A stretch of 63,315 nt of DNA, filler included, from Folioceros fuciformis (lineage: Eukaryota), in assembly GCA_049999805.1 (NCBI GenBank). It is 22 parts of 22 records of this genome, joined end to end, with 100 filler letters (N's around TTAATTAATTAA, not from the genome) between each part and the next. Parts side by side here need not be neighbours in the genome. Positions count along the whole stretch, not along the records: positions 3,805 to 7,979 come from JBNGIO010002602.1; 21 more parts are not named here. One strand, 5' to 3'. This document shows, in pieces, positions 2,538 through 39,214 of this stretch. Under the pieces are notes generated by a model. That model was given only the letters and a program-made list of their open reading frames with translations. It ran no database searches and had not been told where the DNA came from. The stretch's first letter is position 1; each line of letters opens with the position of its first letter. The position numbers were made by a program, and so were the translations under genes.

Positions 2538-2710
2538 TGACATGGAATAGAGTGACACATGGTATATAGGATGGAATGTACCAAAGCAAGTTGTTTCATA
2601 GGACACCATAGAATCAAAGAGGAGGACCTACCCTAAATAGCCATGTTGGGATGTGGACCCACTCTTTTTGCTTAACTTTTTCGAGCCCCACTGCCTTTGG
2701 TTGCAGCTTC

Positions 2711-3025
2711 GGCTACGGGTCGGGCTAAAAACCGAGGTCGAAATTGGCATGGTACCCGCTACGGGTCAAGCTATAAACCGAGGTTAAAAGTGGCATGGTG
2801 CCGGATACGAGTCGGGCTAAAAACCGAGGTCGAAAGTGGCATGGTACCGGCTACGGGTCAGGCTATAAACCAAAGTCGAAAGTGGCATGGTACCGGCTAT
2901 GGGTCGGGCTATAAACCAAAGTCGAATGTGGCATGGTATCGGCTACGGGTCGGGCTATAAACCAAGTCGAAAGTGGCGTGGTACCAACTACTAGTCAGGT
3001 TATAAACGATCGAAAGTCACATGGC
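2711..3025. repeat. 46-bp minisatellite, about 7 units
   Basis: Unit close to GGCTACGGGTCGGGCTATAAACCGAGGTCGAAAGTGGCATGGTACC, starting at 2711, 2757, 2803, 2849, 2895, 2941 and 2986. Confidence 0.95.
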
Positions 3026-3687: not shown

Positions 3688-5274
3688 CTCCTATTCTTTA
3701 TAACNNNNNNNNNNNNNNNNNNNNNNNNNNNNNNNNNNNNNNNNNNNNTTAATTAATTAANNNNNNNNNNNNNNNNNNNNNNNNNNNNNNNNNNNNNNNN
3801 NNNNTCCTATTCAAGTGCAAAGACTGGAACATTCTTTACAAAAGATTGTCCTTTTATGGCAACTATTAATCCCTTCTTCTGAGCGAAACAACTTTCCTAA
3901 AGAATTTTTCTCTTATGGCACTATCACTATCCTAACACTATTTTTGGTATGATATGACCTTGTCACGAAGTTGATTGCTGATAGCAAGGAGGTAAGCCTT
4001 GGTTGATGTTGTATAAGACAACCTTCAGCCTAGTTATTTCATAGTTATTGCATAATGAGATTACAACACTTATGCCTTAACCAACAATCATGATATATGA
4101 CCCCAACTTAGCTATAGATATATATGTGTGTAGAAAAGTTTAGAAATAGCTAAATATTTCCAAATAGGATTAGAAATAGCTAGATATTCATGTAGAAGTT
4201 AGGTCAAAATGTAAGTTGGAAACCCCCAAGACAGTTGATGTTGCAACCATGTTGCTCAAGGTGGGAGAAGGGCATAGCTAGGGTGTATGCTGTGAGTTGA
4301 TCATGAGACAGAGAGGTGCAACTGTAGCTGCTGTTGGAGTGTGAAGAGGGAGGTGTGCTAGAGCCTGAAGATGAAGATGCTGAGGCAAATGCTAGGCAAA
4401 AAGGGGAAACTAGGGCATATTTAGTTAGTTGTTGAAGACACGCCTTGCAGTGTTGTGACAGAAGGAGGCAACCTTGAACAATCTAGTGTTTCCTGGAATA
4501 GGGTTTGTGGATGAGTTTGTTCTCAATGTGAGGGATCCTTATATTGTAGCCTAGGACGTGACTTACTAGCTCATAGTTGTGTGTGCAACACAACCCCATT
4601 ATTTCACTTTGATCACTACATCAGGAGCAGCAACACAACTATAGTGGAGCAGTACTTCAAGGCAGTATGAGTTCTTTTAGTCACCATAGGTTTGAGGATG
4701 CAACATTGCAACTACAACAGGGCAGCAACCTAGATAGTCACTTTAGTGTCCTTGCTACCACAATCTGCAAGGGCTTAGGCAAATACACTTACACATTTCT
4801 TTCTACTATCGAAGGCCAACAACAATTTCATTCCAGACCTTCATGCGCCACACTAGCTATTCGAGGCACAAGTACGTCCTTGCAATGGCCTTGGATTTCT
4901 CCTGTGATTGGGCCACTACATCTCTTATGCAATTCCACACTCGCTGTCACCAGTACCCTCCCCATCCACCTCGTGATTGTTATGAGATGTGTCAAAAGGT
5001 ACACGCTGGATTAATTTCCTCTTTAGTGGTAGTCCTACCTTAGGGGTGGTGAAAGCTATCTATAGTCATGGTCTCTCAAGGTACTTGAAGAGCCACTTCA
5101 TTTGCTGGTACCTTATGCACCTGGTTTGGGGGCACGTCATAAGTGGTATAAGGCATGCACTGTGATGACTCTGTGTCACGTGGTCGTTGTGTGACAAGAG
5201 TGGCTAGCTTAGAAGAGATCATGGACCCTTTGCAGCTTCCAGCAATGCTCATCATTAGTTCTTTGTTAAAGGTC

Positions 5275-5722
5275 TTAATTGCAGCATAGACCCTCCACTT
5301 CCCCAAGCTCCTCGTCCTCATTGGGCCAATTGTTTAGTGTGCTAAGGCAAAGCTCCATGAACTGTGTCATCCTAGGGTCCATGTCGAGTGCAATGACATT
5401 ATGACCACATTTCATAGGAGTAGTTCAAGAGCCTAATCCTACGCACTTGTGGAGCACCCAATCACCTTCCACTGTGTAAAGGTCTATAAGTTTCCACAAA
5501 AACTTCAATGGCTTTTGGTAAGGGGACACGACTTTATCATCAGCTTTGCTGTAACATAGCTTGTGCACCACGACCCTTTCCTAGAAACAATTAGTGAGAC
5601 CTTTCCCATCCAACAAAACCTTTGAAGATGTAGTGGCAAAAAAATGTTGCGAAAGGCAACCCTCCTTAGTTGACCCCAATGCCATTGTGATAAAATCTCT
5701 TGCATCATAAAGTCGATCTATG
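5275..5722 (-). pseudogene. C-terminal remnant of a beta-class N4C/N6A DNA methyltransferase (N6_N4_Mtase-like)
   Basis: One frame reads ...VVSPYQKPLKFLWKLIDLYTVEGDWVLHKCVGLGS*TTPMKCGHNVIALDMDPRM..., matching the consensus P-x-QKP..L..LI..T..GD.VLD.F.GSGTT...K.GR..I..E/D.D. Internal stops at 5581-5583 and 5425-5427; terminal TAA at 5275-5277. Confidence 0.62.
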
Positions 5723-5724
5723 CC

Positions 5725-6430
5725 ACGTTGCACAGCCGGCAACACACTGCAGGTCCTAAACCAAGCAGGGACAGACCACAAGAGCTCGTGAAGAGAGTAC
5801 CTCCAAGAGCTCACGAAGTGACAGAATAACTCCCAAAGTGAATTACTACCTCCTCCTACAGGCTCACCCGATCTTATAAGAGCCTCTCTCTCTCTCTCTG
5901 ACTTCACCTCTCTCTAACTTGACAAATATTATTTTAATAGGACCACTAGCCTAGCCGGCTATCACCAGCCACTTATTTAGACTTCTAGCACATCCTGCCA
6001 CCAATGAGCTGGCCCTACCACCACAAGGATCTACCACCTCTTAGACTATCATGAGATTTCGGAGGATGTTTGATCGTCTGTGGACTCCGCCTCTTCCTTG
6101 CTGGATGGCCGCCCGCTTAGTCTTCCCCTGCAACTGTTCACCCTTGGTGGCCGAGCCAGCTTCCAGGGGAGGAGTATGAGTAGTGAGAAAGATAAAGAGG
6201 AGGTGGGAAGCAATGGGATCAGCAGTCGGAACCTGGCATGAAAACGGTAGCTTATTCAGCGGAATCAGCTTCCAGCCAAAATGGTTCCTCGTCCATGGAG
6301 GACTTGACCCTGGGGTGCTAGAATAGGCCCCAAACTAAGATAAAAAGAAAGCAGGTGAAATAAAGTTGAATTGGAATTTTTGGAATTAAATCCAGAAAAA
6401 TAGGGTGAAAATAGAAAAGGGGAAATTAGG
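5725..6430. mobile_element. Fragment of long LTR-like repeat (family L)
   Basis: Near-identical to 36148-36885 and in part to 21665-21930; TATAAG is followed by (CT)n. Confidence 0.8.
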
Positions 6431-6604
6431 ATGATAGTAGTGGCTCCATTTGTCCAAGAAGGAGAGGAAATATATGGACCCACCAAAGGAATAGGTTGAC
6501 ATAGGACCACATATGTCTGAATGGACGACCTCTAGTAGGGAGGGTGCACGTGTAGGGGAAGGATCATTAGTGAGATATCATCAATATCACTAGTTTAGTA
6601 CAAA

Positions 6605-7979
6605 TGTGAAATATTTGTCAAGTTTATTCTAGCAGGATTAGCGAGTAGTTTAAATTAATTCCTAATTACGAAATGGTTACAACTTCCTTGTGTATGTATT
6701 TTCTTTTCTTGATTCAAAACTTTGTCTTCTCATGCACATTAGCCTCTGGGGCAAGACTACTCGTTCTACATGTCGCGATGTGCGCTTCCAATCGTTTATG
6801 GTATTAGAGCTGCAAGATTATTATGATCAGCTACTTGGCACGCTGGTGTGAGACATATTCTTTGACAGCAAGTCACTCATCCTTTTGTTTGGATGAATAA
6901 TCCAAATTGTCTACCGTCGTTGGCGCGCTATGCAGTTTTTCATACCAAGATTCCTTCTCACTTAAACCTACAATGCTTTCAAGTTTACGATAGCCTGGGG
7001 CAGCAATGACAAAGAATCGCTGTAGTAGATCTTGTAGATGCCAAGTAAATCATAGGTCATCTCACATTGTTACTGGCTATAACAATTCTTGCATTTGCTA
7101 CACCCCCTATCTCCCTTTTAGAGAACAATCCTGTCCTGTAATGAAATGTTTAATTTTATAGTATGCTTATAAACAGACTTACGGTTACATTAGAATAACC
7201 GTTAATGCCCTTGTATATAAACAATTAGTTTTATCAATAATAACTGTTCTCTTTTTCTCTTGCGCGCGTCTGCCACGCATCCGCTCTCGTGCCCCCTAGC
7301 ACAGATCGCTTTATCTTGCACATATATCCAGGCAACAGGATCATAAATCACACTTCAGAAAGCATAAACAAGTCGCTTACTCAGTGCCTAAACATATAGA
7401 ACCAATCCTCTATAAGATTTAGGCTTTAGAAGAACATACTCATGATTCCTAGCGGAGGATCAAAATTGAAAACATACTACTTAGGAAACAGATCAATCAA
7501 CTTGAAGTGAAGGTCAAACAGTTGTCAACACTTGTGCATACCTATGTTTCTAGCACACACATCAAAGCAGAATCAATCACACATAATGATCAATCTGCCT
7601 CCTATGTTTGCAACATGCCTTCCACTTCTCAAACTCTAGATAAGATTTAGTCTCCCCTACTTGAACCAGAAAACTTAAGTTCTTTTTCTTCTATACCTGA
7701 ACCTGTAGAGTCAGTCCTCATAGGACTTGCTACACTTTTCAACTAAAAACTATTAGTCTTGTATGGTATCCTCTTAGTTGGTTACCTACAGTAGTATGTC
7801 ATAGCACTGAGTTAATCTCCGGTTCAGGAGAATTTAGCTAATGCACCATCACTTACCACTATTAAAATGTCTGTTAAAATAGATTTCAAAGACAGGGACA
7901 GGTTTAATGGCACCGATTTCGCAGTCTGGCAAATGCGAATGGTTGCAATTCTTGAAGAGCACGAGCTTATGGATATTGT
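6605..7979 (+). mobile_element. 5' end of a Copia element: putative LTR, PBS, long leader, gag start
   Basis: PBS-like TGGTATTAGAGC at 6799-6810; the ATG at 7867 gives MSVKIDFKDRDRFNGTDFAVWQMRMVAILEEHELMDIV (Copia gag N-terminus). The LTR start is approximate. Confidence 0.7.
7137..7324 (+). mobile_element. Possible short solo LTR nested in the Copia leader
   Basis: Starts TGTAAT, contains TATATAAA, ends CATA; flanked by TGTCC/TATCC (4/5). Confidence 0.35.
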
Positions 7980-8079
7980 NNNNNNNNNNNNNNNNNNNNN
8001 NNNNNNNNNNNNNNNNNNNNNNNTTAATTAATTAANNNNNNNNNNNNNNNNNNNNNNNNNNNNNNNNNNNNNNNNNNNN

Positions 8080-10536: not shown

Positions 10537-13500
10537 TGAAGGATCGCTAGAAGAGCATGGTGAAGGAGAGGAGAGGAGGAGGCAAGGAGCAGAGGAGAAA
10601 GAAAGGTCACACTCTCCCAAAAGGTCTCAATATGCAAGGGAGCTCAAGGGGGTATTTATACTCTCTAGAAGAGCTCCCTGGGAAGCTTCACAAGAAGCGC
10701 ACAGGAAGCTGCGCAAGAAGCGCACAGGAAGCTACGCAAGAAGCTTCCTATAGATTAGCTTAAGCTAATCTAAACTAATTATACTTAACTAGACACTAAT
10801 CTTAGACTAAACACATTAGTCTAAGCACATTGGGCTTTAATAACCCCACAACCTCCCCCTTAAAGGCCAATTTACCTTCATAGGAGAGTAGTCTACCTCA
10901 TGCCCATGAGTGTCCGAGCTTGTGCGAATTGCTCCGAAGAGAGCCCCTTGGTAAGAACATCTGCAGGGTTCTGACTGGTGTGAGCTTTGACAAGTTGTAC
11001 CCTCTTGTCTTCCAACACCTCTCGAATGAAGTGATACTTCACTTCCACATGTTTGGTCTTCGCATGAAACACTGGATTCTTCGCCAACTGGATAGCACTC
11101 TAGCTATCACAATACAACACTGGTAGCTCAACTGCTAACCACTCCCACTGCCAACGCAATGTCAGGACGCGTAGCAGTCATTGCATACATCAAACTCCCC
11201 ACAGCTGATGAGTATGAAACCTTCTCCATTTCAGCTTTGTCCTCCGCAGAGCTTGGGCAATCTTTGCTTGAAAGTTTCACATATGGAGGCAATGGAGTAC
11301 TCAATACCTTCTCCTTCTCCATATTGAAACGTTGAAGCACCTTGTTAATGTATTCAGTCTGAGACAAGTAAAGCAAATGCTTCTGTCTGTCTCAACAAAT
11401 ATGCATGCCAAGAATATGGCTTGCCTCTCCCAAGTTTGTCATGTCAAAGCGACCATTCAACTTTGACTTCAACGTTGAAATCTCATCACTGTTAGTCCCA
11501 GCAATTAGCATATCATCCACATAGAGGACGAGAATGAGCAAGCTTCCATCCTTAGCTTGCTTTGTATAGAGGCAATGATCCTCATTGCTACGTTTGTAGC
11601 CTTGAGAAAGCATAAACGAGTGGAATTTGAAATACCACTCCCTAGGTGCCTGCTTCAAACCATAAAGGCTCTTCTTTAACCTGCACACCAGACTCTCTTT
11701 GTCCTTCTCAATGAAACCCTCTGGTTGCTGCATGTATATCTCTTCCTAGAGATCACCATGCAGAAATGCCGACTTCACATCCATTTGGATAAGTTCCATG
11801 TTGTGCCTCGCAACCAGACCAAGGACACATCGCAAGGTGGTCATTTTAACAATTGGCAAGAAAATCTCATCAAAGTCAATCCCTTGCTATTGCTTAAAAC
11901 CCTTAGCGACCAATCGTGCCTTGTACTTGGGTTTGCCATAATGGGGTATGTCCTTCATCTTATACACCTATTTGCATGGCAACGCCTTCTTACCCTTAGG
12001 CAACCGAACCAACTCCCAAGTTTGGTTCTTGTGGAACGAATCCATCTGCGATTGCATCGCCTTCTCCCACTTGTCCTTGTCTATCATTGATATGGCCTCT
12101 TGGTAACAAGAGGGCTCCCCACAATCCGTCAGCATGACATAATCAAGAGATGCAACATACCTGTCAGGAGGACGTGAGATCCTTCTTCACCTACGAAGCA
12201 CTGGCGCCTCAACCGGAGCTGGTTGCACTCTCTCCTCTTCTACAAGTGGAGGAACTTGTTCCTGCACAGCACGACGTTCAACCTACGCGGGATGGTCAAC
12301 TCCATCTTCTTGAAAGACCACCCGTTGCACTTCCACAGTTGGAGTAGGCTTCTTGTGCATCTTGGTCTCATTGAAGAACACGTCATTGCTGCCAACCATC
12401 CTCTTGGCTTTTGGATCCCATAGACGGTATCCCATCTCACTAGATTCACCATAGCCAAGAAAAAGACATTTCTTGGACTTGGACATTTCTTGGACATTTC
12501 TTGAAAAAGTCAACTTGTCCCGAAATTCCTTCGGAACATGGTAGTACGCCTCGTAGCCAAACACTCGTAGATGCTTGTATGACGGCTTCTTTCCAGACCA
12601 CATCTCCTCTGGAACTTGTTCATCCACAGCCCTATTAGGAGATCTGTTAATAAGATGCATCGCAGTAGCCACTGCTTTTGCCCAAAATCCGTTAGGCAAT
12701 CCAGAGTTAGACAACAAACTACGCATCCTCTCCTGGATGGTCTTGTTCATCCGTTCAGCCACACCATTCTGGGGGGGAGTATACGGCACAGTCAATTCTC
12801 TCTTGATTCCCTTAGAATCACAAAATGACTGGAAAGCCTTCGAGACATACTCTCCCCCATTGTCTGTCCTTAGACACTTCAGTCGGAGGCCACAAGGGTG
12901 ACGAATTTCTGAAACACTGTCAGAACATCATCCTTTTTCCTCAAAGGATAAACCTACACCTTGCGTGAGAAGTCATCAATGAAAGTGTCAAAATAGGATA
13001 CACCGCCTAAGGATATAGTGGGCATAGGTCCACAAACATCACTATGAACCAATTCAAGAGGTTTACTTTTGTGTTTACTCTTGCTCCATGTGGTGACTTT
13101 GTCTGTTTCTCATACAAACAATGCTCACACACGGAGAAATCGGAGAAGTGAAAAACAGGGACGTAACCAAACAAGATAGTATCTTCATTCCTTTTTGAGA
13201 CATATGTCCTAAGCGACTATGCCACAAGGAAACACTTGGTTGTTCCGTTACACAAATCACATGATCCTTGACAGTGGTTACCTGAAGTGAGTACAAAGTG
13301 CCACACTTCGATCCACGAGCTAACACAAGAGAACCTTTGGAGATCTTCCAAGAACGATCTCCCAACCAACAGTGGTAGCCAGCGTCATCCAACTGCCCTG
13401 CGCTAATCATGCTTTTGGTCAACTTCGGAACATGCCTAACATCCTTCAGTACGAATGAAGATCCATTGTCGAACTTCAACTGCACATCACCAACGCCTGC

Positions 13501-13990
13501 AATCTCGCATGCGTAGTTAGCATCCTTTCCTGGTAGCATCATACGTGCTAAACCACTCCCTATGCGGAGTAACATGGAAAGATGCTCTAGAGTCAATTAT
13601 CCAATTAGAGAACAAGTAACTCTCCACGGCTGTCAGTTGTGCAGAATCGAAGGAAGAAGAGGTAAGAACATCTCCATCATCAACAGAGTTCACTTCGTCA
13701 CGCTTGACACTCGGACTTGTCTTGTTGTCGCTTTGCTGCTTCCCCTTTCCTTTGTCCTTTTTGAACTTCTCGCAGTCCCTTCTAATGTGACCCTTCTTGT
13801 AGCAATGGTAACACTCAACATTGTTACGACTACGAGATTTGCTACGGGAAGAACTTCGCTCCTTGTACTTCCCCTTTGAAGTGGATCTTCCTTTCACCAT
13901 GAGGGCATTGGAACCTTTGGAAGGTTCCATATTCTTCCTGTTCACCTCCTTTGTTAACAAGCTACCTTCTATATTTACAACGGTAAGATG
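10537..13990 (-). mobile_element. Copia family A, 5'-truncated degenerate element with 3' LTR
   Basis: Order: gag zinc knuckle (CYHCYKKGHIRRDC), protease (WIIDSRASFH), integrase (PPQNGVAERMN), RT (LYVDDML), RNase H (HARTKH-like FHAKTKH); PPT at 10851-10861; LTR at 10537-10850; frameshifts and deletions. Confidence 0.96.
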
Positions 13991-16294: not shown

Positions 16295-16394
16295 NNNNNN
16301 NNNNNNNNNNNNNNNNNNNNNNNNNNNNNNNNNNNNNNTTAATTAATTAANNNNNNNNNNNNNNNNNNNNNNNNNNNNNNNNNNNNNNNNNNNN

Positions 16395-16640
16395 TGTGGG
16401 CACCGAGAGAGGTGCAGCTGACCGCCGGATAGCGAGGCCTGTCCTACGCCTGATCGGAGCTGGAGGGGAGCCCTCGAATCCATCATCAAGTCGATCAAGT
16501 CCGACAATCCATCCACAGCAACAAGGAACCCCATCGCTCCTTCGTGGGGACGAAACCCAATGTCTCAGCGACAGTGGGATAAGTGTGGCCACTAAAGGTG
16601 GAACCCGTTGGCAATCACTGCCCGGGGTTTTGCCTCCACA
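16395..16640. mobile_element. Terminus of family L LTR inserted into a Copia integrase
   Basis: Reverse complement of 35403-35648; ends CCACA, after which integrase HMRVFGS resumes. Confidence 0.85.
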
Positions 16641-19300
16641 CTCATATGCGAGTTTTTGGCTCCACTGTGTATGCACAAGTCCAAAAAGACATTCGTAAGA
16701 AGTTCGAACCTAAGTTGAAGGAATGCATTTTTGTGGGCCTCACCGAAGGCATTAAGGGCTACAAGCTGCTGAATCGACAAACAAAGTAGACGACACACTC
16801 AAGAGATGTGGTGTTCATCGAAGGAGTTGAGCCAAACCTCACAGTGGGAGACGTAGCCAGCTCTGAGTGGGTTGACGAAGGAGACTACTCCTCAGAAGAA
16901 CAAGAGGAGATCATTGTTGGTGACATGAATGTACCGGTGCCTGCACCATAACCACAAGGTCAACAGAAGCAGGTGGCCACCTCTCTGTCTCCACAAGTAC
17001 CAACAGCCTCACAACAACCAGCAGCAGCCAACCTGAGGCCAATACTTCAAACACCTGTAAAGTTGTCAGCGGAGGATCCTGAGAGTTCTAAACAAACCCC
17101 TCAACAAAGGAAAACACTCAAGTCTACTCACCCGGAGCTAAGGTCTTCAACAAGGATACGTAAGCCTCCAGATTATTGGGTACCTGAAGACTTTAGGCAT
17201 CCAAAATCGCATTTGACTTACTGCTTAGCTGCATACATGAAGGCTTTTGAGCCACAATCCTATGAAGAAGCAATATCATGCCATGATGCAAACTTATGGC
17301 AAAAGGCCATTGACTCTGAGCTAGGCTCACTGTATGAGAACAAGACCTGGTCCCTAACCAGCCTACCTGCACATTGCAAGGCTGTTGGGTCCAAATGGGT
17401 CTTCAAGTTAAAGCTATGAGCAGACGGCAGGATTGATAGATACAAAGCAAGGGTTGGTGCGAAAGGATACTCACAAATTCCTAGAATGGACTATGACGAT
17501 ACATTATGTCCAATTGTCAAGCTAACAACACTCAGATTGTTTGTGGCACTTGCAGCAGTGGGAGACTATGAACTGGAACAGTTGGACATGACCACTGCAT
17601 TCCTATATGGCAACCTCCAAGAGGAAATCTATATGACAGTGCCCTCAGGAGTTGACATTCCACACATTCTGCAAAATCCAGTGTGTAAGCTGCATAAATC
17701 CTTGTATGGGCTCAAATAGAGCCCGAGAGCCTGGTACTCACGTATAGACAACTATCTCAAGTCAATTGGCTATGAAAAAATCAATGCTGATAGCAATGTC
17801 TATATAAAGCGAGAAGGGAGAGAGTTTTTGGCACTTGCCATATATGTCGATGATATAATAATAATGAGTAACTCCCTCTGGATGATAGAAGAACTTAGAC
17901 AGCAGCTAAGCATGGCATTTAAGATCACTACAGGAGGCGCTCTAGAGTTTTGCCTTGGTATGCAGTTATTACGAAACCGCAAGAATGGAACTATATTCCT
18001 ACACAGACGAAGTATGCACAAGAAATCCTTGCTAGATTTGAAATGAGTAATTGCAAACCCATCTCAACACCTATCGAGCAAAACACCAAGTATTATGCAC
18101 AGGTGGGTGACATACCTAAAGAGGACGCAGAGAAGGTACAACAGTATCCCTCCATAAACGGAAGCGTTATGCACCTAATGATAGGATCTCGTCCAGACCT
18201 GGCATTTAGCTCTGGCCTGACCTCAAGGTTTGTTTCAAACCCAAACCTCCACCATAACACTCTGATGACAAGGCTCTACAGGTATATAGCAGCCACCTAC
18301 GACTAGGCTCTACAGGTATATAGCAGCCACCTATGACTAGGCTCTACAGGTATATAGCAGCCACCTACGACTGGGGCATCATGTACAGCTCAAAATAAAA
18401 AATGCATTACAGTCAGTGGCTTACAATGATGCCGTCTGGGCCGCCGACCTTGATAGCAGAAAGAGCGTCTCTAGCTATGTTACCTTGCTTGCTGGAGGTG
18501 CTGTGGCTTGGAGCAGTAGGAGACATACCACAATCGCACTCTCCTCAATAGAAGCCAAATACACGAGTCTCACGTAGGCCTGCAAAGAGGTAACATGGAC
18601 AGTGGGAGCTCTACGAGAATTGGGAGTAGAACAAAGTCTGCCAGCTAGCTTGTTTTGCGACAATCAAAGTGCCATTGCCCTCAGCATGAACCCCAAATTC
18701 CACGCGAGAACAAAGCACATTGAAATACAGCATCATTACATCAGGGAAGTGATTGCAGCAAGAGTGGTGGAAATTATCTACTGCGCAACAGAAGAGATGA
18801 CAGCTGATATTCTCACGAAAAGTCTTGGGCGCATCAAACACTACCAGCACGCCGCCGGCCTTGGACTCCACGCTGCAGGAGAACTCATCAAATGGAGTAG
18901 GGTGCCTAATCAGCAGCTCAACAAAGCTCAAGTGCAGCCGCAAAAGGACTGGAGTGCAAGTGACTGAACAAAAGTAGAGAAGATGGCCTGCCCTTGTTTC
19001 TCGATTTTTGAGTCTAGGTTGCTCAAATCTCGTTAGCAAGTTTAAGCTTTTCTCTATATCAAGTGGATATAGATAAGCAAACAATAAATGACATATATAT
19101 ACATATATAGTTAAATATGTGTAGATACCCCTCTCACCTCAGTGGGAGTGTTAGAGTAGGTTAAATACATTAACTTACTTACAGGTTTAGGGCTAGACAG
19201 TTGAAAACCCTAACCGTCGCCATGTCTTGGTGACGTGACTGAGAACACTGAATAACTACTTTTCTTTTCTCACGCCGTGACACCCGTTTGATCCATCTCA
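16641..19300 (+). mobile_element. Copia family B, 3' half with PPT and 152-bp 3' LTR
   Basis: Integrase SH3 region (ECIFVG...KGYKLLN), RT (IYVDDII), RNase H (CDNQSAI...FHARTKHIEI); PPT AGTGGGAG at 19141-19148; LTR 19149-19300 with TG...CA ends. Confidence 0.93.
18271..18372 (+). repeat. 34-bp tandem triplication inside Copia RT/RNase H
   Basis: AGGCTCTACAGGTATATAGCAGCCACCTAYGACT at 18271, 18305 and 18339. Confidence 0.97.
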
Positions 19301-20498: not shown

Positions 20499-21257
20499 TT
20501 GCCATGCAAATGAGTGTATAAGATGAAGGACATACCCCATTATGGCAAACCTAAGTACAAGGCACGATTGGTTGCGAAGGGTTTTAAGCAACAGCAAGGT
20601 ATTGACTTTGATGAGATTTTCTCATCGGTTGTCAAAATGACCACCTGCGATGTGTTCTTGGTCTCGTTTCGAGGCTCGACATGGAACTTGTCCCGATGGA
20701 TGTGAAGTCGGCATTTTTGCATGGTGATCTCCAGGAAGAGGTATACATGCACCAACTAGAGGGTTTCATTGAGAAGGGCAAAGAGAATCTAGTGTGCAGG
20801 TTAAAGAAAAGCCTTTATGGTTTGAAGCAGGCACCCAGGGAGTGGTATTTCAAGTTCCACTCATTTATGCTTTCTCAAGGCTACAAGCGTAGCGATGAGG
20901 ATCATTGCCTCTATACGAAGCAAGCTAAGGATGGAAGCTTGCTCATTCTGGTCCTCTATGTGGATGATATGCTAATTGCTGGGAAGAACAGTGATGAGAT
21001 TTCAACGTTGAAGTCAAAGTTGAATGGTCGCTTTGACATGACAGACTTGGGAGAGGCAAGCCATATTCTTGGCATGCGTATTCGTCGAGACAGGCAGAAG
21101 CATTTGCTATACTTGTCTCAGACTGAATACATTAACAAGGTGATTCAACGTTTCAATCTGGAGAAGGGGAAGGTATTAAGTACTCCGTTGCCTCCATATG
21201 TGAAACTGTCGAGCAAGGATTGCCCAAGCTCTGCGGAGGACAAAGCTGAAATGGAAA
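20499..21257 (+). pseudogene. Copia family A RT fragment
   Basis: [34 protein letters not shown] and LYVDDML motifs. Confidence 0.95.
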
Positions 21258-21289
21258 GTAATGACCAGGGGTCTGAGGGGGGGCTGTTT

Positions 21290-22154
21290 GGTCCTTGAGT
21301 CTTGGTGGTTGAATAAACGCTAGGGAGCCTATATATATGGATTCCCCCCCCCTTCCCTTGTAGTTAGGAAATAAGAAACGATCGCTAGGTAAGGAGGGTC
21401 GTGGACTTAGGCTAGAAAATAAGGAAGTTGTGACGCAGCAACGGTGGGGGAAGGTGAACCACTGTCATGGAAGGGACAACTGGTAGTGGAGCTCCGGTGG
21501 GTAGCGGAATCGAAGCGGCCAAGCAGCGGAAAACCCTCAGTAGGACTAGGAGGGTTCGGGTGTGATTTTGAAAAGGAGCACAACCGCAGTGGAGTCGAGG
21601 AGCGGAAGTGGTGGACGGGGCGTGAGCTGAAGGCAGGCAACCGGAGCGAGACACAACTGAGCCTCTAGGGGAGGAGTATGAGTAGTGGGAAAGATAGAGA
21701 GGAGGTGGGAAGCAATAGGATCAGCAGCCGGAACCTGGCCTGAAAACGGTAGCTTATTCAGCGGAATCAGCTTCCAGCTGAAATGGTTCCTCGGCCATGG
21801 AAGACTAACCTTGGGGTGCTGGAATAGGCCTCAAACTAGAAGGAAAAGAAAGCAGGTGAAATAGAGTTGAATTGGAATTTCTGGAATTAAATCCAGAAAA
21901 ATAGGGGTGAAAATAGAAAAGGGAAAATTAGGAAAAGAAAAAGAAAAGAAATACGGGGATACGTATCAATATGTATTAAATATGTATCTAAACCATATAA
22001 AATACATAGGGGGGGTGTCTGTATACGGTCCCTATAACATTAAACTAGGGGACGAAGAATAAGGGAGGGAGGAAGCGCAATGAAGAAGGAGGAGCGGAGA
22101 GGAAAGGGAGAAGTCAGCCATGGAGGGAAGCGGGGCAGAATGGGAGCACGGGAG
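21290..22154. mobile_element. Composite long-LTR fragment
   Basis: 21290-21615 matches 32552-32876; 21665-22075 matches 36618-37062. Confidence 0.75.
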
Positions 22155-22254: not shown

Positions 22255-22377
22255 AGTTTCCTAGATGGGTATTCAGGTTACAATCAGATCACACTGAGGG
22301 AGGAGGATCGCGACAAGACGACTTTCACAACTGATTGGGGGACCTACGCCTACACCAAGTTGCCTTTTGGGCTCTGC
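22255..22377 (+). pseudogene. Ty3/Gypsy (Athila/Tat-like) RT fragment
   Basis: SFLDGYSGYNQITLREEDRDKTTFTTDWGTYAYTKLPFGLC (not in the ORF track). Confidence 0.9.
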
Positions 22378-23944
22378 AAAGAAACGTGATTAATACATTG
22401 AGGAGGCTCCCCATCCATGTGAAGACCCATCATGCGCGTCTTAATGCAATTCATCTTGCAGCCCGATAGCTCACCAAAGACCTTGACCTGTTGGAGCGAG
22501 GCTTTCAATGAGGCCTCCTCAGCCGAAGAAAAGAGGAGAGTATCATCTACATATGCAGAGACCCTTAGTTGCGTTCCATTTGGGTTCCGAATACCCACCA
22601 CTGCCGGGTCTTGCTTGACTGCTCTGAGAAAGAAGTCAGTGACAATGATAATTAAGAATGGAGCAAGGGGGCAACCTTGACGTACTGACCGAGAGATGCC
22701 AAAGCGCTCCGTAAAAAACCCATTGACAGCCACCTTGGCTCCTACGTCTTCACACAAAATGACTATCTATTTGCAGAAATTATTCCCAAACCCGAAGCTA
22801 CGCAGGCACCGCCACAGGAAATGCCACTCAAGAGAATCATAAACCTTGTAAAAGTCAAGGGAAATGAAAACGGCAGCTTTCTTCTGTACCTGAGTGTTGT
22901 ACTTAGCTTCCCTTAGGAGTAGTAGGTTGTCCAGGTTGCACCTATTTTGAATGAACCCTCGCTGCTCTTTCTTAATCCAATCATCAAGAAAGGGTGTAAT
23001 TCGGTTAGCCAGTACCTTAGCAATCACCTTGTACGTGGTAGTGAGCAAGGTAATTGGGCGCCAATTGGAGATTGATAAGCTGGCGTCTTGCTTAGGGAGC
23101 AGGGAGATAACCCCCATATTGAACCAGCTCCCCATGCTACCTTCCTCCCAAAACATACTAACCACTTCCATGAATAACGGCTGCATAAATTCCCAGAGCA
23201 AGAACTCGGGAGGGATACCATCATTTCCCGGGGATTTATCCCTTGGCATCCCCTTCAGGGCCTGGAACACCTTGTCAGCAATTATATGCTTATCTAGAGC
23301 CCTGCGCTGGTCATCGAACACTTTAGCCGAAAGCGCGCCATATGAAGAAGACCAAAGCCGTTCCCACCCTGCCACCTTCCCAACGCTGGAAAATATGCCA
23401 ACAAAGAAGAGGGTAATAAGAGTTTTTAAACCTTTGAGCGATTCTTGCACCACGCCTCGCTTGTCTGGAAGGGCAGGGATTCGCGTCCTATGTCGGTTAG
23501 AGGCCACCTTATTGAAGAAGAATTTAGAGGGGCCGTCCCTCTCCCTCACCCACTTAACTTTGGCTTGCTTAAACCAACCTCTGGCCCTGTCTTCTTCCAA
23601 CTTGGCCAAAGCGCACTGCACCTCCGTTTTCCTAGCCTCTTCCGCACTTGTGAAATCCTGGCCCTCGCAGCTCCTCTGTAACCAAAACGATTCCTCCCTC
23701 AAAAAACATTCTTGCTGGCTTTGTTCTCTTGCTCGTTGAACCCCTAGCCTCCTCAAATACCTAGTTGCCTCATTGTTAGCATACATCAATTTGACCACCG
23801 TATTTTCTTCCCCCTGTTCAACTCCTTGCCATATGTTTTTGAAGATTTCAGTAAGAATGTGTTCATCCAAAAATTTTGCATATGCCTCCTTGGGCGCTCA
23901 ACCTCCGGAGCAAGCCTCAAGTGCAAGCTAATGGGGTGGTGGTC
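22378..23944 (-). mobile_element. L1-clade LINE ORF2 fragment (RT)
   Basis: KSPGNDG, NWRPITLL..YKVIAKVLANR, QRGFI, SLDFYKVYD, VRQGCPLAP and AYVDD motifs; disrupted near 22760. Confidence 0.95.
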
Positions 23945-24136
23945 NNNNNNNNNNNNNNNNNNNNNNNNNNNNNNNNNNNNNNNNNNNNTTAATTAATTAA
24001 NNNNNNNNNNNNNNNNNNNNNNNNNNNNNNNNNNNNNNNNNNNNGGACAGAAGAATCAGAACGAGGGTAACAAAATCTACATTACATTTCGACGGTTATA
24101 ACTAGCATTTTGGTTGATTTGCATCGATTTTGAAAC

Positions 24137-25150
24137 ATGGCGTCATCAGAAAACGTCATGTTCAATATCGAAAAGTTAGATGGTACTAACTTCTCGTTCT
24201 GGAAAGAACAAGTGTATAATGTTCTAGTACAAAAGAAACAGATCAAGCCCATCAAGTTGTTAGGAGTGAAACCTGTTAGCATGACTCAGGATGAGTGGCA
24301 GGATCTAGATGAGCTTGCTAGGTCTACCATCATGCTAACATTGTCTAAATCGGTTTACTTCAACGTGAAAGACAAGACCACAAGCTACGAGCTATGGCAG
24401 AAGTTGTGTGACCTATACGAGAAGCAAAGTGCGGCTTCTCAAGTGTACTGGTTGAAACAGCTGGTGGACTAGAAAATGAAGGAAGGGACGAGGATGTCCA
24501 ATCATCTGAACGAGTTCAACACCATTTTCAGCCAGCTCTCATCACAAGGTATCTTGCTCCCAGATTCCGTGAGAGCTATGTTTCTGTTGGTCACATTACC
24601 AGAGAGCTGGGACACCTTTCGTACAGCTCTTAGTAATTCCGCTCCTGCCAGTGGTCTTACCATTGTAAATGTAGAAGGTAGCCTGTTAACAGAGGAGGTG
24701 AACAGGAAGAATATGGAACCTTCGAAAGGTTCCAATGCCCTCATGGTGAGAGGAAGGTCCACTTCAAAGGGGAAGTACAAGGAGCGAAGTTCTTCCCGTA
24801 GTAAATCTCGTAATCGTAACAATGTTGAGTGTTACCATTGTCACAAGAAGGGGCACATCAGAAAGGACTGCGAGAAGTTCAAGAAGGACAAAGGAAAGGA
24901 GAAGAAGCAAAGTGACAACAAAGCAAGTCCGAGTACCAAGCCTAACGAGGTGAATTCTGTTGACGATGTAGATGTTCTTATCTCTTCTTCCTTCCATTTT
25001 GCACAACTGACAACCGTGGAGAGTCACTTATTCGCTAATTGGATAATTGACTATGGAGCATCTTTCCATGTTACTCCGCACAGGGAGTAGTTTAGCACGT
25101 ATAATGCTACTAGGAAAGGATGTGTTTGGCTTGGAAATAACTACGCATGC
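24137..25150 (+). pseudogene. Copia family A gag-protease
   Basis: IEKLDGTNFSFWK, UBN2-like LLVTLPESW, CYHCHKKGHIRKDC and WIIDYGASFH; in-frame stops at 24470 and 25088. Confidence 0.95.
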
Positions 25151-25250
25151 NNNNNNNNNNNNNNNNNNNNNNNNNNNNNNNNNNNNNNNNNNNNTTAATT
25201 AATTAANNNNNNNNNNNNNNNNNNNNNNNNNNNNNNNNNNNNNNNNNNNN

Positions 25251-26872
25251 GAGCTGGTTGCACTCTCTCCTCTTGTACAAGTGGAGGAACTTGTTCCTGC
25301 ATATCGCGATGTTCAACCTGCGTGGGACGGTCAAATCCATCTTCTTGAAAGACCACCCGTCGCACCTTTACAGTTGGAGTAGGCTTCTTGTGCATCTTGG
25401 TCTTATTGTAGAACACGTCATTGCTGCGAACCATCCTCTTGGCCTGTGGATCCCACAGACAGTATCCCATCTCACCAGATTCACCATAGCCAAGAAAAAT
25501 ACATTTCTTGGACTTGGGTGCCAACTTGTCCCGAAACTCCTTTGGAACATGGTAGTATGCCTTGCAACCAAACACTCGTAGATGCTTGTATGACGGCTTC
25601 TTTCCAGACCACATCTCCTCTGGAACCTGCTCATCCACAGCCCTATTAGGAGATCTGTTAACAAGATGCACCGCAGTAACCACTACTTCTCCCCAAAATC
25701 CGTTAGGCAATCCAGAGTTTGACAACAAACTACGCATCCTCTCCTGGATGGTCATGTTCATCCGTTCAGTTACACCATTCTGGGGAGGAGTATATGACGC
25801 AGTCAATTCTCTCTTGATTCCCTTGGAATCACAGAATGAATGAAAAGCCTTCGAGACATACTCTCCCCCATTGTCTGTCCTTAGACACTTCAGCCGGAGG
25901 CCAGACTGATTCTCCACAAGGGTGACGAATTTCTGAAACACTGTCAGAACATCATCCTTTTTCCTCAAAGGATAAATCCACACCTTGCGCGAGAAGTCAT
26001 CAATGAAAGTGACAAAATAAGATGCACCGCCTAACGATACAGTGGGCATAGGTCCACCAACTCAAGAGGTTTACTTTTGTGTTAACCTCTTGCTCCATGT
26101 GGTGACTTCCTCTGTTTCCCATACAGACAATGCTCACACGCGGAGAAATCAGAGAAGTCAAAAGCAGGGACGTAACCAAAACAGATAAGATCTTCATTCC
26201 TTTTTGAGACATATGTCCTAACCGACTATGCCACAAGGAAACACTTGGATGTTCCATTACACAAATCACATGATCCTTAACAGTGGTTACCTGAAGTGAG
26301 TACAAAGTGCCACACTTCGATCCACAAGCTAACACAAGAGAACCTTTGGAGATCTTCCAAGAACGATCTCCAAACCAACAATGGTAGCCAGCGTCATCCA
26401 ATTGCCCTGCGCTTATCATGCTTTTGGCCAACTTCGGAACATGCCTAACATCCTTCAGTATGAATGAAGATCCATTGTCGAACTTCAGCTGCACATTACC
26501 AATGCCTGCAATCTCGCATGCGTAGTTATTTCCAAGCCGAACACATCCTTTCCTAGTAGCATCATAAGTGCTAAACCACTCCATATGTGGAGTAGCCTGG
26601 AAAGATGTTCCAGAGTCAATTATCGAATTAGATAATAAGTGACTCTCCACAACTGTCAATTGTGCAGAATCGAAGGAAGAAGAGATAAGAAATCTCCATC
26701 GTCAATAGAGTTCACCTCATCATGCTTGTTACTCGGACTTGCCTTGTTGTCGCTCTGCTTCTTCTCCTTGCCTTTGTCCTTCTTGAACTTCTCGCAGTCC
26801 CTTCTGATGTGACCCTTCTTGTGACAATGGTAACACTCAACATTGTTACGACTACGAGACTTACTACGGGAA
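25251..26872 (-). pseudogene. Copia family A zinc knuckle-protease-integrase
   Basis: [34 protein letters not shown] and LWHSRLGH motifs. Confidence 0.95.
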
Positions 26873-35263: not shown

Positions 35264-35402
35264 ATAACGTAGGCAGTGTGCATCATCTAATAATGCAAAA
35301 GTCGAGCTACGTCCTCCTTGTTATCACACATACACTCATTAGCTAAAACCCTCACTATTACTCGTAGGAATTCGAAGCGGCAATTGTGGCACCATGTCTC
35401 AG

Positions 35403-37062
35403 TGTGGTGGCAAAACCCCGGGCACTGTTTGCCAACGGGTTCAACCTTTAGCGGCCACACTTATCCCACTATCGTTGAGACATAGGGTTTCGTTCCCACG
35501 AAGGAGCGATGGGGTTCCTAGCTGCTGTGGATGGAGGGTTGGACTGAATCGACTTGATGATGGATTCGAGGGCTCCCCTCCAGCTCCGATCAGGCGTAGG
35601 ATAGGCCTCGCTATCCAGCAGTCAGCTGCACCTCTCTCAGTGCCCACAAACTCACTCCAGTCACTACAACGACCCTATCCTCTTAGATCTACGACTTCCC
35701 TCACTCACTTCACTCACTCTCTCGCTCCATCACCAACACCAGCAACTAACAACGACACCACTACCTTCTACACTTCCCTACTGACTCCTCCTACCCGGCA
35801 AGAGTCACTAGACTAACCCCAAAGAAAAGAAAGAAGGGAACATACTCCCCTCTCAGATATCTCCTCCCCACAACTTACCAGACGCCATGAAACATGGCCG
35901 GCCTACAGCACTTGTCCAAACAGGGAACAAGAGTGGACAAGTCGAGGGAAAGACACATCCTTTACAATCAAGAGCTAGGGGAAGCCCCTTCACCCTAGTC
36001 ATTACACCTTGTGATCCTACCAGACACTATACAACCGGCAACACGCTGCCCGCGATCCTACCAAACACTGTACAGCCGGCAACACGCTGCCTGCGATCCT
36101 ACCAGACATTGTATAGCCGGCAACACGCGGAAGCTGCGATCCCACCAAACGTTGCACAGCCGGCAACACACTGCAGGTCCTAAACCAACCAGGGACAAAC
36201 CACAAGAGCTCATGAAGAGAGTACCTCGAAGAGCTCATGAAGAGAGTACCTCCAAGAGCTCACGAAGTGACAGACTGACTCCCAAAGTGAATGACTACCT
36301 CCTCCTACAGGCTCACCTGATCTTATAGGAGCCTCTCTCTCTCTCTGACTTCACCTCTCTCTAACTTGATAAATATTATTTTAATAGGACCACTAGCCTA
36401 GCTTGCTGTCACCAGCCACTTATTTAGACTTCTAGCACATCCTCCCACCAATGAGCTGGCCCTTCCACCAAAAGGATCTACCACCTCTTAGACTATCCTG
36501 AGACTTCGGAGGATATATGATCTTCAAAGATCTGCGGACGCCGCCTCTTCCTTGCTAGATGGCCGCTCGCTAAGTCTTTCCCTACAATTGTTCACCCTTG
36601 GTGGCTGAGCCAGCCTCCACGGGAGGAGTATGAGTAGTGGGAAAGATAGAGAGGAAGTGGGAAGCAATGGGATCAGCAGCCGGAACCTGGCCTGAAAACG
36701 GTAGCTTATTCAGCGGAATCAGCTTCTAGACGAAATGGTTCCTTGGCCATAGAAGACTGACCCTGGGGTGCTAGAATAGGCCCCAAACTAGGAGGAAAAG
36801 AAAGCAGGTGAAACAGAGTTGAATTGGAATTTCTGGAATTAAATCCAGAAAAATAGGGGTGAAAATAGAAAAGGAAAAATTAGGAAAATAAAAAGAAAAG
36901 AAATATGGAGAAATGCATACGTTATACGTATCAATACATATTAAATAAGTATCTAAACCATATAAAATATAGAGAAAAAGGGGGGGATGTTATACGTATA
37001 CAGACCCTATACGGTCCCTATAACATTAAACTAGGGGACTAAGAACAAGGGAGGGAGGAAGC
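35403..37062. mobile_element. Longest piece of family L LTR (over 1.6 kb)
   Basis: TGTGG terminus shared with 16640 and 49934; contains 4 x 41-bp repeats (36010-36174) and a 24-bp duplication (36204-36260). Confidence 0.8.
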
Positions 37063-37162
37063 NNNNNNNNNNNNNNNNNNNNNNNNNNNNNNNNNNNNNN
37101 NNNNNNTTAATTAATTAANNNNNNNNNNNNNNNNNNNNNNNNNNNNNNNNNNNNNNNNNNNN

Positions 37163-39214
37163 GCCAGGAAGTGTACCGCCTTCAAGAGCGCCATATAGAT
37201 TGTCGCTAGATGAGCTTCAAGAGTTGAAGAGACAAATGTCTAACTTGTTAGCCAAGGGCTATGTTAGAGTCTCAAAATCCCCATTTGGTACGCCAGTATT
37301 GTTTACGCGTGAGAAAAATGGAGGATTAAGGTTATGCTTGGATTACAGAGCACTCAACCAGATAACAGTCAAGAATTCTTATCCTTTGCCAAGGATGGAT
37401 GATATGTTTGACAGGTTGAAAGGTCCTAAGTATTTTACTAGACTAGATTTGATGGCTGGTTATTACCAGATTTGCATCGCAGAAGGACATGAATACAAAA
37501 CTAGCTTGTAGGACAAGGTATGGATCTTTTGAATTTCTAGTCATACCATTTGGACTCACTAACGCACCAGCCACATTTCAGACTCTCATGAATACTACCT
37601 TCAGAGATATGTTGCATGAGTGTGTTGTGATCTACTTGGATAACATTTTAATATTCAATTCTACCTTAGAGGAGCATGTCCAACACTTGAGGAAAGTGTT
37701 GGAGAGGTTAAGGGCAAATTTTTTGTTCTTAGCTATAACAAAGTGTGAATTTGCTAAGGAAGAGATTGACTTCCTTGGATTCATTGTCTCTGCTGATGGA
37801 ATCAGGATGGATCCTGATAAGGTAAAAGCCATACAGAGTTGGCTGCTGCCAAGCAATGTGTATGAAGTGCGTATGTTATTGGGATTGGTTAGCGTGTACA
37901 GAAGATTTGTACCAATGTTTGCCAAAATTGCTGCCCATTAACTGATCTCTTGAAGAAGGCGAAGGCTTGGAAGTGGGATGAGGAATGTCAAAGGGCATTC
38001 GAGTTTCTCAAGTTGAAACTCAGCACTACCCCAGTATTAGCAATCTATGATCCAAAGAAAAATATAGAAGTGTATACTGATGCGTTAGATACAGGTATTG
38101 GAGGAGTGCTCATGCAAGAAGTTAGGCCAGTGGCTTACGAATCAAGAAAGTTGCATGAACATGAGAGGAAATACCCCACATATGAGAAGGAGATGACAGC
38201 CATCATCAATTGTCTCAAGATCTGGAGACACTATCTTCTTGGAAGATCTTTTGTGTTGTACACAGATAATGTAAGTACAAGCTTCTTTTCTTATCCGTTG
38301 CGACTAAATGCAAGACAAGCTAGATGGCAAGATTTCCTAGCGATCTATGATGTGGAGATTAAGTATAAGCTAGGGAAGGAGAATCTCGTGGCAGATGCTC
38401 TCAGTCGCAAGCAGGAGTTGAGTTTAATATATGTTTTTAAGCTGAAGAATCCTAAGCTAGTTGCAACACAGATGGTGATTGAGCCAAGGGACACTCACAC
38501 GCAGATTAACGAGGCTTATCTGCACGATCCATTAGTGCAAGATTGGATCAATGAAATGGAGCAACCGGGGTCTAAGTTTAAGCTTAGAAATGGCTTGTTA
38601 ATGTTCAAGCAAAACAAGATTGTGATTCCTGATTCTTAAGAGTTGAGAACAAAGTTGCTTGTAGAATGTCACGATGTGCCAAGTGTTGGTCATCGGGGAA
38701 TTGACACAACTTATGAGAAGTTGAAGAAGCTGTTTTACTGGCTTGGAATGTATAAACATACTGTAGAGTATGTGAAGTCTTGTGTAGACTGTCAACAAGA
38801 TAAGGTAGAGCGGACAAATCCACAAGGTTTGTTGCAACCCCTACCTATTCCAAGTGGGCCTTGGAAGAGCATATCAATGGATTTTGTTATGTCATTGCCA
38901 CCCTGTAATGGATACACAGCTATCATGACAATTGTTGATAGGTTTAGCAAGCAAGTACACTTTATCCCCACAAAGAAGCAAGTGAAGGCTTCAGAAGTTG
39001 CTTAATTGTTTTAGAAGCATATCTATGTGTTACATGGATTGCCTATGTAAATTGTGAGTGATAGAGATCCCAGATTCACAGCGGAATTTTGGCAACAACT
39101 TATGAAGAGCTTGGGAGTGCAACTATGTTTAAGCACAGCATATCACCCTAATACAGATGGATCTACAGAAAGAGTAAACAAAATCCAAGAGGAATACTTA
39201 CGACACTATGTACA
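37163..39214 (+). pseudogene. Ty3/Gypsy chromovirus-type (Galadriel-like) pol: RT, RNase H, integrase
   Basis: LDYRALN, YLDN, TDA, ESRKL...EKEMTAIINCLKIWRHYLLG, HHCC zinc finger, SMDF, SDRDPRF and YHPNTDG; several stops and frameshifts. Confidence 0.95.

Follow-up and report, generated by a model that had tools for sequence, protein, structure and literature searches.

A probable pseudogene remnant of a plant-type beta-class amino-methyltransferase-like gene beside a high-copy repeat in Folioceros fuciformis

The locus and the remnant

We analyzed a stretch of DNA of 63,315 nucleotides (nt) from Folioceros fuciformis, referred to here as the window, which consists of 22 short contigs placed end to end and separated by 21 identical spacers (44 N + 12 bases + 44 N; e.g., 1010-1109, 2392-2491, 3705-3804, and 7980-8079), the central 12 bases of which read as stops. 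Because the contigs are joined by spacers, adjacency across a spacer carries no meaning, and the 4,175-base contig at 3805-7979 was the sole source of information on the neighbours of the element described here. This element, on the minus strand at 5223-5724, resembles part of a gene for an S-adenosylmethionine (SAM)-dependent amino-methyltransferase (MTase). We consider it, with a probability of roughly 0.85, to be a non-functional, 5'-truncated pseudogene fragment belonging to a eukaryotic (plant-type) clade of beta-class, circularly permuted, SAM-dependent amino-MTase-like proteins (PF01555). The features of the remnant are as follows:

5223-5724, minus strand: whole pseudogene remnant, corresponding in P0002, the closest relative of full length, to about residues 179-355 (phmmer, tblastn, and tail extension)
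5278-5724, minus strand: main reading frame of 149 codons with two internal stops, closed by a TAA at 5275-5277
5581-5583, minus strand: in-frame TAG, at the column where the nearest relatives have the conserved Arg of N-V-F-R-E
5509-5523, minus strand: motif X core, intact as P-Y-Q-K-P; the family reads YQKP here as its signature, versus TQKP in canonical enzymes
5425-5457, minus strand: degenerate motif I, VLHKCVGLGS and then TGA (5425-5427), where the family has (I/V)(L/V)DGC(S/A)GSGS(T/G)
5377-5400, minus strand: motif II region N-V-I-A-L-D-M-D, with the strand and its acidic end kept and the preceding Arg of G-R-N changed to His
5284-5289, minus strand: probable 1-nt frameshift, with spacing derived by hand from alignments
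5223-5285, minus strand: continuation in the frame of the open reading frame (ORF) at 5076-5333, peptide AAIKTFNKELMMSIAGSCKGS (tblastn and the P0042 sequence)

The remnant thus runs from the end of the variable region through motifs X, I, and II and past the acidic motif LP-x-E-x-E-x-G into a short tail that is conserved. An earlier interpretation made from the DNA alone (the sequence-only reading) had quoted a peptide for this locus; translation of the minus strand at 5278-5724 was identical to it, including the TAG, TGA, and closing TAA listed above. The blocks that it had assigned to motifs X, I, and II (PYQKP, LI, GDWVL, G-x-G-S, and NVI..D.D) were found to occupy columns conserved in the relatives.

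Motif I carries an Asp-to-His and a Ser-to-Leu change, the loss of one codon, and a stop. In the five nearest relatives this motif is kept, reading (I/V)(L/V/I)D-x-(C/Y)-(S/A)-G-(S/A)-G-(S/T), and the window copy lacks the intact SAM-binding form (F/C-x-G-S-G-S/T after hydrophobic-hydrophobic-D). Among 26 columns invariant in these five relatives, the fragment kept 18; the eight changes include D92H and R108H, and SAM-site positions are among those affected.

Homology continued beyond the end given in the sequence-only reading, in another frame, down to about 5223. Once one base near 5286 is skipped, the E-(L/I)-G motif and the conserved block that follows lie exactly as far apart as in P0002, P0003, and P0042, and the peptide encoded there, AAIKTFNKELMMSIAGSCKGS, resembles the A-D-A-(M/I)-(K/R)-T-F-(K/R)-K-E-P-M...G-S block of P0003, P0042, and P0002. 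For this 5223-5285 tail, tblastn gave E-values of 3.7e-5 (P0003) and 2.6e-4 (P0002) in a search space of 1.6 kb. Judging from these alignments, the change of frame near 5286 is probably a 1-nt frameshift.

Homology and family assignment

An exhaustive phmmer search of 1,835,955,588 representative proteins with the fragment returned 31 proteins at E ≤ 1e-3, including six at E ≤ 1e-10. The best match, P0002 (E = 4.8e-28, 41% identity), covered fragment residues 3-146, with the main frame aligned to P0002 residues 179-323, and the top four matches (4.8e-28 to 1.9e-24, 41-46% identity) covered almost the whole fragment. These E-values ruled out a chance resemblance. A word-index search with the fragment among proteins of near length matched nothing.

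PF01555 (N6_N4_Mtase) was the sole Pfam match of the fragment, and it fell at the correct place in the profile (positions 163-186 of 221). Since the fragment alone scored below the Pfam threshold, family membership was established through transitive homology: all 13 of the relatives scanned (10 + 3) passed the PF01555 cut-off. A profile of 17 rows with the fragment included (profile A2) matched M.RsrI (1.8e-11), M.MboIIA (7.1e-11), CcrM (1.3e-10), and a DpnA-type enzyme (1.4e-10), and beyond M.RsrI it matched six further beta-class entries at ≤1e-7. On M.RsrI, the fragment aligned to three elements: the helix with QKP, the G-x-G strand, and the acidic end of a strand.

Structural comparison was performed on the AlphaFold model of P0002, a relative and not the fragment itself, which had a mean predicted local distance difference test score (pLDDT) of 62.6; its core blocks reached 81-96, and its tails were disordered. 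Among PDB structures, Foldseek matched this model best to M.BceJIV (3.6e-12), followed by MboIIA, CcrM, HpyAVI, RsrI, bdelloid N4CMT, and PvuII, with E-values from 3.6e-12 to 1e-9 and a probability of 1.00 throughout. P0002 is therefore predicted to have a Rossmann-like beta-class MTase fold, and the fragment maps into that model over the last strands of the variable region, the motif X helix, motifs I and II, and the helices after them. Motif order in P0002 is permuted, with DLPRG at 98-102, YQKP at 245, and motif I at 266; the fragment lacks the N-terminal half.

Maximum-likelihood analysis of 29 rows placed the fragment in a clade with P0002, P0005, P0042, P0003, and P0004 (support 100/100). 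Its end branch was 0.88, compared with 0.20-0.49 for the clade partners, and such a long branch fits decay without constraint.

The phmmer matches, the Pfam scores of the relatives, profile A2, and the fold of P0002 together bore out the sequence-only reading where it had recognized the SAM-binding half of a beta-class, PF01555-type enzyme. The structure prediction that it had recommended, run on P0002, likewise yielded beta-class MTase fold matches.

The wider protein family

We looked up 30 of the 31 matches (P0030 was left out), eight of which carried species names, all of them fern or Ginkgo. Six were from Adiantum nelumboides and one each from A. capillus-veneris and Ginkgo biloba, all recorded as 'hypothetical' or by locus tag only; they include MCO5611298.1, MCO5553878.1, and MCO5614432.1 of A. 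nelumboides, KAI5055486.1 of A. capillus-veneris, and Gb_37443 of Ginkgo. The clade nearest to the window copy comprised P0002-P0006, P0042, and P0043. The fern and Ginkgo proteins formed a separate clade (support 97/96) and were 27-36% identical to the fragment, with E-values from 1e-9 to 1e-5.

The family shares YQKP in motif X (TQKP being the canonical form here), a kept motif I, and an acidic tail, LP-x-E-x-(Q/E)-E-(V/I/L)-G. Motif IV of the relatives reads D-(L/A/I/P)-P-(R/Y/H)-G and not (D/S)PP(Y/F/W/H), with Asp first in every protein that covers it. DLPRG was present in all four nearest-clade proteins covering the motif (P0002, P0005, P0006, and P0043), whose mutual identity was just 37-55%. 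Elsewhere the motif was DAPYG or DAPYD in ferns, DIPHG in Ginkgo, and DIPYG in P0017, and only P0029 had a canonical-like form, DPPHG. The sequence-only reading had asked whether the relatives carry SPPY or DPPY; the answer was neither, the pattern being D-x-P-x-G, and DLPRG in the nearest clade.

The first residue of motif IV in amino-MTases (Asp/Asn versus Ser) tracks adenine-N6 versus cytosine-N4 specificity; the aromatic residue provides stacking for the flipped base. We infer the chemistry of the relatives from this motif: an Asp start combined with an Arg at the aromatic position suggests adenine-type ancestry with catalysis altered or lost, if these proteins are active at all.

Long forms of the family (P0020, P0036, and P0037 from Ginkgo; P0009 and P0035 from Adiantum) have an N-terminal extension of 250-400 residues that is not found in the nearest clade. 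It contains a conserved block, Y-x-Y-(Y/W)-V-(I/L)-(G/A)-G...H-N-x-D, which gave weak, sub-threshold matches to DUF6551 in three Ginkgo proteins (E 0.019-0.032). The extension may resemble a ParB-like domain, which we keep as an unconfirmed hint; in a profile search of PDB sequences, it had no match better than E 0.22.

These proteins form a small unannotated PF01555-type family in vascular plants (two Adiantum species and Ginkgo), in which the SAM site is conserved and the catalytic tetrapeptide is altered yet conserved as altered. No paper on the DLPRG proteins or on the fern or Ginkgo members turned up in the literature searched, from which subscription journals and supplements were largely absent, and the only plant beta-class enzyme found was Marchantia DN4MT1.

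Truncation and flanking sequence

On the same contig, the remnant is accompanied by the following features:

5725-6431, plus strand: internal piece of a very high-copy repeat, 'L', other copies of which extend past both ends
6467-6535, minus strand: copia-type integrase scrap of 23 residues, 65% identical to the copia integrase ORF present in the window (E 6e-10 in a single comparison), with no Pfam match
7903-7968, plus strand: possible copia gag start (DUF4219) at the right end of the contig, sub-threshold (E 0.0068, 16.6 bits versus a cut-off of 27)
3805-5222, no strand assigned: left flank, low-copy (depth 4.5-47), with no recognized protein domain in six frames

Homology to the MTase relatives stopped at 5724, and the sequence from 5725 onward is repeat. 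The 5725-6431 segment aligned to 36149-36885 and 21660-21933 with 88-91% identity. The summed word depth rose at the junction from 12-15 to 26,000-158,000, and over repeat L as a whole contigs from three DNA runs reached 7,000-158,000. The cut by repeat L that the sequence-only reading had described is therefore real and lies at 5724/5725. tblastn alignments of P0004, P0010, and P0012 extended past 5724, and this apparent homology was rejected because the bases belong to repeat family L. Loose contig ends at 5725 and 6431 showed that other copies of L continue past both positions, which marks the segment here as the interior of a longer, very abundant element rather than a cleanly inserted unit. 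Repeat L yielded no protein domain. Short contigs of run X4, which we guessed to be RNA, matched repeat L only, with none on 3805-5624, and were uninformative on expression either way.

When the 35 relatives were compared with the window by tblastn, their N-terminal (motif IV) halves matched nowhere. Together with the lesions described above, this agreed with the earlier description of a decayed copy with a missing catalytic half and a degenerate motif I.

Pfam analysis of the six frames of 6430-7979 gave the sub-threshold DUF4219 match, in one frame, as its sole result, and the repeat fragment and copia scraps on this side are not in an element's order. On the other side, no Pfam match was obtained in any of the six frames of 3805-5276, and in particular no transposase, integrase, or reverse transcriptase (RT) domain. 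The remnant had been described as embedded in retroelement DNA; this holds for the right side, with its high-copy repeat and copia scraps, but not for the left, which is low-copy and has no recognized domain.

Copy number and the possibility of transposon cargo

The same tblastn comparison of 35 relatives identified a single locus in this 63-kb window of repeat-rich contigs. In run X1, one contig covered 4568-5719 at a depth of 11.9, and in run X2, one contig covered 4568-5754 at a depth of 15.0, with zero letters differing from the window. Bins across 4785-5624 showed precisely these depths, 11.9 and 15.0; since the bin depths equal the single-contig depths, there is no second contig at ≥80% likeness on this stretch. 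In both DNA runs, the depth of the remnant was at the level of its low-copy left flank. The remnant is apparently single-copy, or has a few copies at most in its genome, and no mobile element is visible around it.

These results bear on a proposal made in the sequence-only reading, namely that a mobile element carries an MTase-like gene as cargo; the family would then spread by transposition, and the remnant would be one dead copy. The proposal draws on the dispersed and often fragmentary state of the family in annotated genomes, with at least nine A. nelumboides gene models of 72-720 amino acids on different contigs and at least five Ginkgo paralogues with 58-100% identity, as well as on the position of the remnant next to a very high-copy repeat and copia scraps. 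Furthermore, the first ~130 residues of P0035 (A. nelumboides MCO5614432.1), in which Pfam gave no match, may be Ty3-type integrase pieces fused to the MTase-like part, in which case P0035 would be a chimeric gene model in repeat-rich DNA. However, each run showed one contig at the depth of the left flank and no second contig at ≥80% likeness, the window contained a single locus, the left flank had no transposase, integrase, or RT domain in six frames, and the neighbouring repeat is an internal fragment rather than an element terminus. Transposon cargo is thus an improbable account of the remnant, and a truncated, low-copy pseudogene fragment remains our preferred reading.

Run X3, from the same sample as X1 and X2, showed C>T differences at 107 places and G>A differences at 117 across 3805-7979, with every other change at 16 or fewer. 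This pattern suggests a library converted by bisulfite or enzyme, from which the 5-methylcytosine state of the remnant locus could be derived.

Pseudogene status

Could the fragment instead be part of a live gene, with stops that are assembly or sequencing errors or lie in introns, and with a catalytic exon beyond the repeat? It does extend over 450 nt without a frameshift, and its motif X and acidic tail motif are well kept. An intronic position of the two stops is excluded, however, since the alignment with conserved residues runs unbroken through both columns, and the same letters were found in contigs of two runs (probably of one sample). The changes in eight of the 26 invariant residues, SAM-site positions among them, an end branch about twice those of the clade partners, and the probable frameshift ahead of the conserved tail also argue against a functional gene. 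A live gene is highly improbable here, and we regard this possibility as largely refuted.

Several observations count against interpreting the locus as a decayed, low-copy fragment of this family. X1 and X2 probably derive from the sample used for the window assembly, which leaves the two stops without independent confirmation. Rare variants are lost from contigs, summed depth cannot be read as copy number, and this comparison would miss paralogues with less than 80% nucleotide identity. At the right-hand boundary, only the 5724/5725 junction was bridged by a run contig (X2 record 11, extending 30 nt into the repeat), and the assembler may have chosen the path that leads through the repeat to 6432 and further. 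Past the frameshift, the extension is supported by a match of only 34-45 residues, obtained in a small search space. Finally, the PF01555 profile check recommended in the sequence-only reading had a divided outcome: the fragment alone scored 11.7 bits as a whole and 13.7 bits for its middle ORF, below the cut-off of 26.7, whereas the profile that includes the fragment matched beta-class MTases.

Origin of the family

When P0002 was used for a pattern scan of prokaryotes (185,579 species, one genome per species), the 45 pattern matches included no relative. The corresponding scan of viral contigs gave 34 pattern matches and one relative, L001, which is an ordinary phage MTase (28% identity over 71 residues, HPTQKP) located beside helicase-like and primase-like ORFs and without special kinship to the family. 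Against the clade profile, the next matches after the clade members were canonical DPPY proteins, at 1.8e-6 to 5.2e-4, compared with 1e-49 to 1e-135 for clade members. Among language-model neighbours of P0002, which we treat as a lead only, the nearest large clusters were mostly phage PF01555 proteins (scores 0.95-0.96).

Recent bacterial or phage DNA, whether a contaminant or a fresh horizontal transfer, is the least probable origin and is largely refuted: PF01555 is overwhelmingly prokaryotic and viral and phage-dominated clusters lie nearest to P0002 in the language-model lead, but all eight named proteins among the 30 looked up are from ferns or Ginkgo, the prokaryote and viral scans returned nothing closer than one ordinary phage MTase, canonical DPPY proteins are far weaker than clade members on the clade profile, and the fragment is joined to a eukaryotic high-copy repeat within one contig. 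An ancient acquisition of the family from a phage or bacterium is plausible by analogy with other eukaryotic amino-MTases, as described in a survey of eukaryotic adenine methylases (PMC4738411).

Interpretation

We infer the loss of function at the locus and the order of events as follows. The ancestor would have been a gene of the small plant-type clade of beta-class amino-MTase-like proteins. Its front half, with motif IV, was presumably lost at the 5724/5725 breakpoint with the internal piece of the very high-copy repeat, and the back half that survives comprises the end of the variable region, the PYQKP helix, the motif I strand, motif II, and the family-specific acidic tail. This leftover half then appears to have decayed without constraint, which implies that the locus does nothing.

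The intact relatives keep a complete SAM-binding site, and their leading Asp would point to adenine-N6 over cytosine-N4 if they are active at all. With the Arg of DLPRG in place of the base-stacking aromatic residue, altered or lost catalysis is a real possibility.

A more far-reaching proposal is that the fragment is a fossil of an undescribed land-plant clade (YQKP, D-x-P-x-G, and the acidic LP-x-E-x-E-x-G tail), the intact members of which, in ferns, Ginkgo, and the lineage of the window, would be working nuclear writers of N6-methyladenine (6mA) or N4-methylcytosine (4mC). Plants would then have, besides Marchantia DN4MT1 and independent of it, a second system of DNA amino-methylation; alternatively, the DLPRG branch might have become a SAM-binding, non-catalytic partner or reader. 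This proposal is speculative, and we think it unlikely.

The remnant itself is a dead relic, ordinary as a pseudogene and of little weight, and the family that it reveals is a modestly interesting lead. Should its members be active, they would be candidates for the contested 6mA or 4mC signals in the DNA of ferns and gymnosperms; as pseudoenzymes, they would offer a new case of a bacterial-type MTase fold repurposed in eukaryotes.

Other features of the window

Most other contigs in the window have long polyprotein-like ORFs (copia, gypsy, and long interspersed nuclear element [LINE] types), several of them broken by stops. By eye from the ORF list, long ORFs reading like copia are located at 11392-13596, 20615-21298, 24134-26701, and 51439-53699; a gypsy-like ORF (37119-39005) and a LINE-like RT ORF (22350-23897) were identified in the same way, without a domain search. 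A tandem array with a period of ~46 bases occupies 2709-3024, with self-matches at offsets of 92, 138, 184, and 230 (79-85% identity). The ORF list also contains a long ORF-like stretch common to two contigs, at 35343-35816 (plus strand) and 16347-16709 (minus strand), …GGKTPG..CQRV.PL.ATLIPLSLRH…GFEGSPPAPIRRR.GLAI..SAAPLSVPT, which is probably another repeat family. No Rfam family reached its gathering score anywhere in the window.

Comparison with known systems

The closest comparison is with the beta-class adenine-N6 and cytosine-N4 MTases (M.RsrI, M.MboIIA, CcrM, M1.HpyAVI, M.BceJIV, and M.PvuII). The relatives of the fragment share with them a PF01555 score above the Pfam cut-off, the fold predicted for P0002, and the motif order IV-X-I-II. 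They differ in being eukaryotic (plant) proteins with YQKP instead of TQKP, a non-canonical motif IV, and a conserved acidic tail. P0002 is only 13-20% identical to the solved beta-class enzymes, and the window copy is a dead half-gene. On profile A2, the adenine-N6 enzymes scored 1.8e-11 to 9e-10 compared with 1.8e-6 for N4CMT, and M.PvuII was not among the matches at ≤0.01; by this measure the relatives are not closer to cytosine-N4 than to adenine-N6 enzymes, and none has a Ser in motif IV.

The fragment is a member of one family with the fern and Ginkgo proteins, with which it has YQKP, motif I, and the acidic tail in common; the motif IV of these proteins is non-canonical (DAPYG and DIPHG). 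Their long forms carry a large N-terminal extension, in contrast to the nearest clade, which has none.

The sequence-only reading had named Marchantia DN4MT1 and bdelloid N4CMT as eukaryotic examples of the class, and a likeness to them is not supported by motif IV, which in the relatives is D-x-P-x-G and not TSPPY. MpDN4MT1a/b is a land-plant sperm 4mC writer with the TSPPY motif of cytosine-N4 enzymes; it clusters with prokaryotic beta-class amino-MTases and with cytosine-N4 enzymes (bioRxiv 10.1101/2021.02.12.428880). Compared by published motif rather than by sequence, TSPPY contrasts with the Asp start of the relatives, in which only the second of the two prolines is kept. Bdelloid N4CMT is likewise a permuted PF01555 protein in a eukaryote, and its structure (8s9m/8s9o) was among the fold matches of P0002 (E 2e-10), but its sequence-profile match was much weaker than that of the adenine-N6 enzymes (1.8e-6 versus 1.8e-11). 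It has a C-terminal chromodomain, and its authors report no eukaryotic homologues (PMC8885841).

In the sections available, the eukaryotic adenine methylase survey describes few adenine-N6 MTases in land plants and lists no land-plant beta-class clade (PMC4738411). The same sections describe inactive MTase domains with disrupted catalytic residues in DIRS1 retrotransposons, a precedent for a catalytically disrupted MTase-like domain in a eukaryotic mobile element. Those domains, however, belong to another MTase group (M.EcoKI/TaqI-like, PCIF1-derived) and lie inside a polyprotein, whereas the Folioceros remnant was found without the context of an element.

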